Assembly: GCA_020137815.1 (NCBI GenBank)
Contig: CM035351.1
Coordinates: 3,348,001 to 3,412,000 of the forward strand
DNA: 64,000 bases
Source of the DNA: Hormiphora californensis
Taxonomy: Eukaryota; Animalia; Ctenophora
Direction: 5' to 3'
This document shows, one piece after another, positions 22,770-24,064 of this stretch. Made by a program: the position numbers and the translations under genes. How positions within the stretch are numbered: position 1 is the first letter of the stretch; each line of letters starts with the position of its first letter. The notes beneath the pieces were generated by a model that saw only the letters and a list, made by a program, of their open reading frames with translations, was not told where the DNA came from and did no database searches.

Positions 22770-24064
22770 CAAGTAGAGATTGACAGTCAGCAGTGTATGT
22801 TGGAAATCCTTGATACTGCAGGAACTGTAAGTATTGGAATTCTGTCACCTCCCCCCCCCCCCCCCCCCCACAGAACCCAATATAACACTATGATTCTAGG
22901 AACAATTTACTGCCATGAGGGATCTCTACATGAAGAACGGACAAGGATTCATCCTCGTTTACTCCATCACCTCTCAGTCAACTTTCAATGACCTCCAGGA
23001 TTTGAGAGAACAGATCCTTCGTGTAAAGGATAGGGATGATGTGAGTACACAGTAGTAGGGACCTCAATGAGCGAGGGAGAGACCGACTAGAGATAGAGAG
23101 AGGAGGTGTTTTTCTAGTGTGTATTGGTATTTAGTTCCTATCTATTGATACCCCCTCCCTCAGGTCCCCATGTGTCTAGTAGGAAACAAGTGCGATCTGG
23201 AAGATGAGCGAGTGGTGGGTAAGGACCAGGGACTCCAACTCAGCCGGGAATTCAATAGCTGTACTTTCATGGAAACGTCTGCCAAATCTAAAATCAACGT
23301 GAACGAGGTAACAATTGCAGATGGACGTGTTGCTTATTGCTAGCAATGTTGAACTATGGTAGCCCGGCGCGCGGCCAGCTACCCATCTCGCGCGCGCGTG
23401 CAGTATCAACAACACACACAGACCGACACACACAGGAAGTGACTCACACTGCTGCATGCAGTGAGCAGTGAGAGGTGCATGATGTGTATAGCAGACCTCC
23501 AAACACTTGTGCTGTTTTTCAGATATTCATTGACCTCATCCGACAAATAAACAGCCGAACCCCCGGTTCTGGTCCAGCCAACGGAAATGGGAAGGGTCGA
23601 TGCTGTACCCTTCTTTAGAAGCCTGAGAGTTGTGATAGTGAGTGTGCGATAATAATATGGAGCATTATTATTCGAGCCGGGATTGCTGTAATGTGTGTCT
23701 TGTGTGTGTGAGGGGGGAGCAAGAAAGCATCATTTTTATGTTTGAGCATATTATATCGGTATGCAATTGCAATTGCACGACCTGAATTGATGATATGATT
23801 ATCTTGACAAAAGAATATTTTTCCGAATTCCGAACAACAACAAAAACCCCGACCCAGTTATAACCCAGTTTTATATCCCCAGTGGAGCCAATACTGATTA
23901 CACGCACAAGTATCAGGGAGCGGGACCCCTCCACTTTCTTTCTATTTCTAACCACTAACCCGAGTCCTTCGTTTCAGATTTTCCAGGATCTTGTACGACA
24001 AATTAACAGCAAGAATCCAGGGCCGAATGAGCGCCGGAAGAAAAAGATCTGTGTGCTGTTGTAA
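22770..24064 (+). CDS. RAP1: Ras-related protein Rap1, 5' exons missing, with two alternative terminal exons
   Basis: Exons 22770-22826 ([19 protein letters not shown]), 22900-23040 ([17 protein letters not shown]...), 23164-23307 ([19 protein letters not shown]). Last exon A is 23523-23618 and last exon B is 23978-24064. DTAGTEQF is diagnostic for Rap. Confidence 0.95.

Follow-up and report, generated by a model that had tools for sequence, protein, structure and literature searches.

A KRAS-type cassette layout for two alternative C-terminal tails in a ctenophore Rap1 gene

The Rap1 locus and its surroundings

The window, by which we mean the whole 64-kb stretch of the Hormiphora californensis genome that was analyzed, contains a Rap1 gene represented by coding exons 3–5 followed by two in-frame tail exons, A and B (Table 1). 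The tail encoded by exon A has 31 residues and ends in Cys-Cys-Thr-Leu-Leu before a stop codon, and the tail encoded by exon B has 28 residues, is polybasic and ends in CVLL. An earlier reading made from the sequence alone (the sequence-only reading) had placed a phase-0 donor at 23307 and two in-frame tail exons at 23523-23618 and 23978-24064, each with its own pyrimidine tract and AG. Re-reading of the sequence agrees on the donor, on both exons and on their translations, and the CTAAC element reported ahead of B was found twice.

Table 1. Features of the Rap1 locus in the window
Feature	Position	Strand	Remarks
Garbled stretch, expected place of Rap1 coding exons 1-2	19500-22480	.	Homopolymer-rich, unreadable
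Rap1 coding exon 3	22770-22826	+	57 nt; joint 22826>22900 GT..AG, in 7/8 RNA runs
Rap1 coding exon 4	22900-23040	+	141 nt; joint 23040>23164 in 4/4 runs checked for it
Rap1 coding exon 5	23164-23307	+	144 nt; phase-0 GT donor common to both tails
Two TGCATG motifs	23453-58, 23476-81	+	No more than 70 nt ahead of the acceptor of exon A
Exon A, cassette	23523-23637	+	115 nt; stop-containing coding part 23523-23618 followed by 19 nt; donor GT at 23638
A-B intron	23638-23977	+	340 nt; CTAAC twice, at 23948 and 23955
Exon B, true last exon	23978-24511	+	Coding 23978-24064; 3′ end at least 24511 (L005 transcript alignment 23978-24511)

By its G domain the gene belongs to the Rap1 subfamily, with sequence scores that place it closer to Rap1A/B than to Rap2 or Ras. 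A full-length congener, P0135, whose exon 4–5 protein is identical, was used to stand in for the Rap1 of the window. P0135 scored 314–341 bits against Rap1A/B chains, 234.6 bits against Rap2A and at most 215 bits against Ras, and its Pfam match was to Ras (4e-59). Over 48 aa, the exon 5 protein of the window shows 100% identity to P0007, a EukProt model from Pleurobrachia bachei, although the intron read-through of that model differs from that of the window. The gene is on this evidence that of a Pleurobrachia-like ctenophore, perhaps of another species than P. bachei. Products read through the intron in other animals also break at this exon 5 end, and the intron positions presumably match those of vertebrate RAP1A/B. 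Membership of the KRAS family itself was considered and rejected, as the best matches are to Rap1 and both tails end in Leu, with no farnesyl-type CaaX.

The first two coding exons are expected in a stretch that is unreadable in the assembly. Between 19500 and 22480, 35%–56% of the bases, counted per 500 nt, lie in homopolymer runs of at least five. The figure is 1%–7% for most bins on either side and ~14% for the 1 kb that directly precedes the stretch. This stretch also contains a degraded copy of ~22526-22678 (73.7% over 156 nt) and is likely low-quality read sequence. Rap1 exons 1–2 were not recovered from it by fuzzy motif search, blastn or tblastn, and with full-length P0135 as tblastn query the matches in the window start at residue 43. 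In RNA, the loose ends lying before 22768 can be read as the Rap1 exon that precedes exon 3.

Other genes in the window were recorded in passing. A Rab gene on the minus strand (25711-29866), which we take to be Rab35-like, lies tail to tail with Rap1, and its own tail ends in Cys-Ser-Cys-Gly. On the plus strand, a large and nearly intronless gene (10451-13410), whose N-terminus gives a weak PH domain match (E 1.8e-4, which is below cut-off), resembles the inositol polyphosphate 4-phosphatases. The CX5R-like site in its last exon has Asn in place of the expected Arg, and judged by this residue the gene is possibly a pseudophosphatase. The window also has an intronless gene of the ribose-phosphate pyrophosphokinase family (13870-14826, plus strand) and a pseudouridine synthase gene, one intron of which contains a 62–73 nt minisatellite (16554-17092) with ~7 repeats of the exon end and GT donor.

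Exon A is a stop-bearing cassette spliced onto exon B

RNA evidence was taken from marine and aquatic community libraries stored as contigs, ten of which contained part of the locus. Eight of 11 listed runs were examined, and all run counts refer to X1-X6, X8 and X11, with X7, X9 and X10 left out; X1 and X2 represent one sample, X6 another sample and X8 another study. The tails were not covered in four of the eight runs (X3, X4, X5 and X11), X11 being matched only at <90% likeness. Both joints that the sequence-only reading had proposed from exon 5 are present in contigs of X1 and X2: 23307>23523, exon 5 to A, at depths of 16.4 and 4.9, and 23307>23978, exon 5 to B with A skipped, at depths of 7.04 and 3.7, respectively, although these come from one sample only, with 26-nt sides and a likeness of 88, and joints from metagenomes can stem from other organisms. 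A third joint, 23637>23978, connects A to B and has the same depth as the joint from exon 5 to A in both runs (16.4 and 4.9). It recurred in X6 (side 58, with no other letters) and in X8 (side 22), which brings it to four of the eight runs, three samples and two studies. The three joints all have GT..AG borders. Isoform use is poorly reflected by contig depth, and contigs drop rare forms. RNA pieces on exons A and B differ from the window at 0–2 letters. As a separate observation, the X1/X2 contigs differ from the window at nine of 144 letters in exon 5 and at none in exon 4 or exon B; the differences listed fall at silent-type positions and could represent a haplotype or population difference.

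Since exon A ends at a used GT donor (ATA/gtgagt) and is spliced onto B, it is a stop-bearing cassette rather than a last exon, and when it is included B becomes 3′ UTR. Two claims of the sequence-only reading do not survive this result. It had described two terminal exons, but A ends at the donor at 23638 and joins B. It had also proposed a splice/polyadenylation switch with separate poly(A) sites, but no AATAAA or ATTAAA, the canonical hexamers searched for, occurs in 23619-23977, and the joint of A to B recurs among the runs. Positions 23671-23925 were covered by no contig in the eight runs, which is weak on its own and was given no weight as proof. A weak, word-limited protein search with tail A extended by 11 in-frame intron residues gave no match.

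The intron upstream of exon A carries two TGCATG motifs, the Rbfox-type splicing motif. Two copies were reached in 121 of 3000 dinucleotide shuffles of the intron, and the Poisson P at the window-wide rate is 6e-4 for a pair that was noticed post hoc. They are possible candidates for Rbfox-type control sites. The predicted fold of intron 5 is no better than that of shuffles (z +1.45) and a structure-based switch is thus not indicated.

The two tails in ctenophores and in other animals

A pattern scan of metagenome contigs recovered five loci (L001-L005). The pattern demanded an AGY serine and missed exon A of L004, which has a TCC codon, and several JGI proteins; it was too strict for absent contigs to mean anything. 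Two of the loci are transcripts with the layout of the window. L005 reads exon 5, A, 19 nt and B, and is 84%–95% identical to the window depending on the piece. L004 reads exon 5, an A tail ending in CCTLL, a stop, 2 nt and an intact B frame, and is ~83% identical to the window in exons 3–5. L002 represents the skip form, with a tail that matches X2 of Bolinopsis. L003 is a transcript with one tail only, lacking the extra Cys, and L001, a genomic locus, carries the Rap1 of another animal, in which one polybasic exon provides the only tail. In Bolinopsis microptera, two RefSeq isoforms, XP_063675109.1 (X1, A type) and XP_063675110.1 (X2, B type), share an identical 156-aa G domain. A Mnemiopsis protein, KAL5257987.1, is of B type and the consecutive records KAL5257988/9.1 carry the A-type X1 sequence; assuming that these too are from Mnemiopsis, both tails appear to be present there. 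The layout of A spliced onto B is thus known from three species (those of the window, L004 and L005), and Bolinopsis and Mnemiopsis are known from their tails alone. The expectation that both tails would be found in relatives holds for L004, L005 and Bolinopsis, and apparently for Mnemiopsis.

Among 20 distinct ctenophore-like tails, those with a Cys upstream of the CaaX, eight in all, are set apart by a branch (89/84, not starred) in a tail tree of 25 rows and 30 columns, in which few forks are resolved and rows are not species. The tree omits an incomplete row (P0021) and the intron read-through rows. One row, P0199 (a Clim_ model, which we take to be Clytia), was entered as B by the filter and groups with the outgroups. 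As group A was defined by the upstream Cys, counting this Cys is circular, and the independent part of the evidence is the branch together with tail position 13, which is Thr in all eight Cys-bearing ctenophore-like tails and in none of the 12 that are Cys-free.

The charge of the tails separates the two types less sharply. The sequence-only reading had contrasted a polybasic anchor in B with a Cys-adjacent anchor in A that lacks basic residues. The contrast holds for the tails of the window, where B has five K/R in the eight residues before CVLL and A departs from the polybasic pattern. The lack of basic residues in A was overstated, as the eight residues before the CaaX contain 0–4 K/R in A tails and 4–5 in B tails across relatives. 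Some A tails are fairly basic (P0121 has four and P0122 three K/R in the last eight), so the charge contrast between A and B is not absolute. There is also an exception lineage with two tails behind one G domain (P0125; P0128/P0129), neither of which has the extra Cys. The rows of this ctenophore-like lineage are L003, P0125, P0128, P0129, P0131 and P0136, and either the Cys was lost or two species are represented. Identical G domains occur across species, and unnamed pairs such as P0011/P0132 are for this reason not proof of isoforms.

Exons A and B are related by an old duplication, as the sequence-only reading had proposed from synonymous changes in a conserved helix-5 part. The first 15 residues of the two tails are identical at 11 positions, six of these 11 codons are silently different, and over the 15 codons pS is ~0.95 and pN 0.18. 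With silent sites saturated to this degree, the duplication is old and not a haplotype copy. Comparison of the window with L005 gave eight silent and one replacement change in exon A (binomial P 1.2e-4 vs. neutrality) and seven silent and no replacement changes in exon B (P 2.2e-5), even though B is untranslated in the L005 transcript. The corresponding silent to replacement ratios are 14:0 for exon 4 and 22:0 for exon 5. Judged by these substitution patterns, both tail exons are under purifying selection, again in agreement with what had been proposed.

Outside ctenophores, Cys-bearing Rap1 tails are no rarity, making up 13 of the 114 spliced tails in the matches. In the weevil Anthonomus grandis, two Rap1 RefSeq isoforms, X2 (P0157, XP_050313832.1) and X1 (P0158, XP_050313831.1), resemble the ctenophore case in having two annotated tails behind an identical 154-aa G domain. 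However, each of these tails is polybasic and contains one Cys, and the divergence between them begins only beyond the helix-5 part; they do not amount to an anchor-type switch. A copepod-containing clade has three tail types, one polybasic, one polybasic with Cys-Gly-Cys and one Cys-rich, behind an identical 155-aa G domain (P0096, P0227 and P0247). Near-identical G domains with different tails occur there as well (P0034/P0255 vs. P0040/P0253), P0202 and P0231 being the named copepods. Read-through products of the clade place an intron at the same point as the end of exon 5 in ctenophores. Copepods may thus, from these protein comparisons, have multiplied the last exon of Rap1 independently, and if their tails are isoforms, the switch arose more than once in Rap1.

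Proposed function, alternatives and comparison with known anchor switches

The reading that we favor, with a probability of about 0.7, is that inclusion or skipping of exon A equips one G domain with one of two tails, a Cys-CaaL tail with predicted geranylgeranylation and palmitoylation or a polybasic CaaL tail, and that the two forms likely occupy different membranes or membrane domains. Skipping of A would yield the polybasic CaaL tail that is the usual Rap1 anchor, and inclusion would yield the Cys-CaaL tail and leave B as UTR. The limit for nonsense-mediated decay is a stop 50–55 nt before the last junction. The stop of A lies 19 nt (2 nt in L004) before that junction, inside the limit, so the A message should be stable and would be expected to escape decay. 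A CaaX ending in L or F leads to geranylgeranylation, with a polybasic tract or a palmitoylated Cys acting as the second signal (PMC9882654). Both ctenophore tails, ending in Leu, would then be geranylgeranylated. In RhoB, Cys192 is palmitoylated beside the prenylated Cys193 (PMC13236570), and by analogy the Cys adjoining the prenylated Cys of tail A may be palmitoylated in the same way; tail A as a whole is likely both palmitoylated and geranylgeranylated. The A form would have a reversible acyl anchor and might cycle between membranes, and the B form would bind acidic lipid through its charge.

A different possibility, which we regard as unlikely, is that both isoforms are real proteins whose difference does not act through palmitoylation or membrane choice. 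The extra Cys could be unmodified, redox-active or doubly prenylated in the manner of Ykt6/GGTase-III or of Rabs, or the tails could differ in GEF or chaperone binding. GGTase-III acts on the di-Cys CaaX tail of Ykt6; Rab and GGTase-III prenylation nevertheless require recognition of the folded domains of their own substrates, which speaks against double prenylation here. A prenyl group with an adjacent palmitoyl group is the usual reading in Ras and Rho proteins, and all eight tails of the A branch retain the upstream Cys despite a freely varying linker, both of which favor an acylated tail. On the other hand, the exception lineage keeps two tails without the extra Cys, and Ykt6 is known to be geranylgeranylated by GGTase-III (PMC12610929). 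The different tails of human Rap2A and Rap2B alter activation and not localisation (PMC4159233), which supports this alternative.

A switch of the Cdc42 type, in which A would act at least part of the time as an alternative last exon and use a poly(A) site of its own, is very unlikely. It has a precedent in Cdc42 E6/E7, which are alternative 3′-terminal exons with a palmitoylatable upstream form (PMC4870516), and rare forms could have dropped out of the contigs. Nevertheless, the joint of A to B recurs across samples and studies and in the L004 and L005 transcripts, its depth equals that of the joint from exon 5 to A in X1 and X2, and 23619-23977 holds no canonical poly(A) hexamer, which leaves room for a rare minor site at most. 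It is just as hard to sustain that A is a poison or noise exon, whose inclusion lowers Rap1 output through decay or lack of translation so that the tail is never made. A does have a stop upstream of a junction, but at the short distances given above; its changes relative to L005 are almost all silent, a complete CaaL with the conserved Cys is kept across species, and A contigs are at least as deep as skip contigs in X1/X2, depth being a poor measure. That two separate Rap1 copies were merged next to the garbled 3 kb upstream, with its degraded duplicate of nearby sequence, is scarcely credible, since exon 5, A and B lie in order on single RNA contigs (L004 and L005), in RefSeq both forms belong to a single Bolinopsis gene as isoforms, saturation of silent sites between A and B shows that they are not haplotype copies, and tblastn with full-length P0135 found no second Rap1 G domain within the window; the assumption of a single gene made by the sequence-only reading is borne out.

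With the choice between a Cys-CaaL and a polybasic tail retained as the preferred reading, the closest known system is KRAS 4A/4B. In both, two homologous tail exons follow one G domain in one gene, and an upstream exon with a stop is included or skipped, the downstream exon being untranslated upon inclusion; in KRAS, the stop lies in 4A, and the message that includes 4A still contains 4B as untranslated sequence (PMC5945503). An extra Cys in the upstream tail and a polybasic downstream tail are also common to the two systems (PMC9882654 for KRAS), apart from the exception lineage (P0125/P0128), which is without the extra Cys. The differences concern subfamily, phylum and chemistry. KRAS tails are farnesylated, whereas the ctenophore tails end in Leu and are predicted to be geranylgeranylated, and the extra Cys of ctenophores directly adjoins the CaaX Cys. 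KRAS 4A has been proposed to derive from NRAS exon 4 by shuffling (PMC9882654), whereas ctenophore A looks like a tandem copy of the last exon of Rap1 itself. To give A, the ancestral last exon would have been duplicated in tandem before the Pleurobrachia/lobate split, with an origin independent of KRAS and Cdc42. It is most likely, then, that the ctenophore switch works like KRAS4A/4B in layout and arose independently by tandem duplication. An independent origin argues for selection of a switchable acyl vs. charge anchor on one G domain.

Tail A is of the Cys-CaaX type, as is the tail of yeast Ras2. RhoB likewise has a Cys directly before the prenylated Cys, palmitoylated in that protein (PMC13236570), but in RhoB and Ras2 the tails are fixed and there is no splice switch. 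In Cdc42 E6/E7, as in the ctenophore gene, splicing selects either an upstream tail that can be palmitoylated or a downstream tail of the general kind (PMC4870516); however, E6 is a 3′-terminal exon with its own 3′ end, whereas ctenophore A is spliced onto B, and E6 is of the CCaX type (bioRxiv 10.1101/366369) in contrast to the Cys-CaaX of tail A. Rap2A/B/C combine a Rap-family G domain with a prenyl and palmitoyl anchor (PMC4159233), but they are separate genes, and the ctenophore protein scores higher to Rap1A/B than to Rap2A.

What is new is a KRAS-type cassette layout in ctenophore Rap1 that is expressed, conserved in several ctenophores and under selection. It adds a third GTPase, from an early-branching animal phylum, that matches the KRAS layout in detail, with a stop-bearing cassette, the polybasic exon as UTR and a stop near enough to the junction that the message should survive decay. 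In the available text of a survey of 167 RAS-superfamily members, only KRAS and CDC42 are named as having distinct membrane-targeting tail variants (PMC9882654). A search of titles and abstract openings, with most subscription papers outside its scope, found no publication describing either this locus or an anchor switch in Rap1. The remark in the sequence-only reading that no such switch was known for Rap1 stands in this respect, but alternative Rap1 tails do exist in the weevil RefSeq gene and several tail types in the copepod-containing clade. A broader reading is that the anchor exon of Rap1 was duplicated independently several times in animals (in ctenophores, in copepods with up to three tails and in a beetle), and that the ctenophore cassette is cell-type-regulated, possibly Rbfox-controlled and neural, giving a palmitoylated, Rap2-like Rap1. 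This is conceivable, though we consider it doubtful; if repeated origin is true, the KRAS4A/4B design is a recurrent solution and not a vertebrate one-off. Why KRAS4A persists is a standing question, and Mnemiopsis offers a tractable system with single-cell data for finding which cells use which anchor. Both isoforms are already present, unremarked, in the automatic annotation of Bolinopsis.
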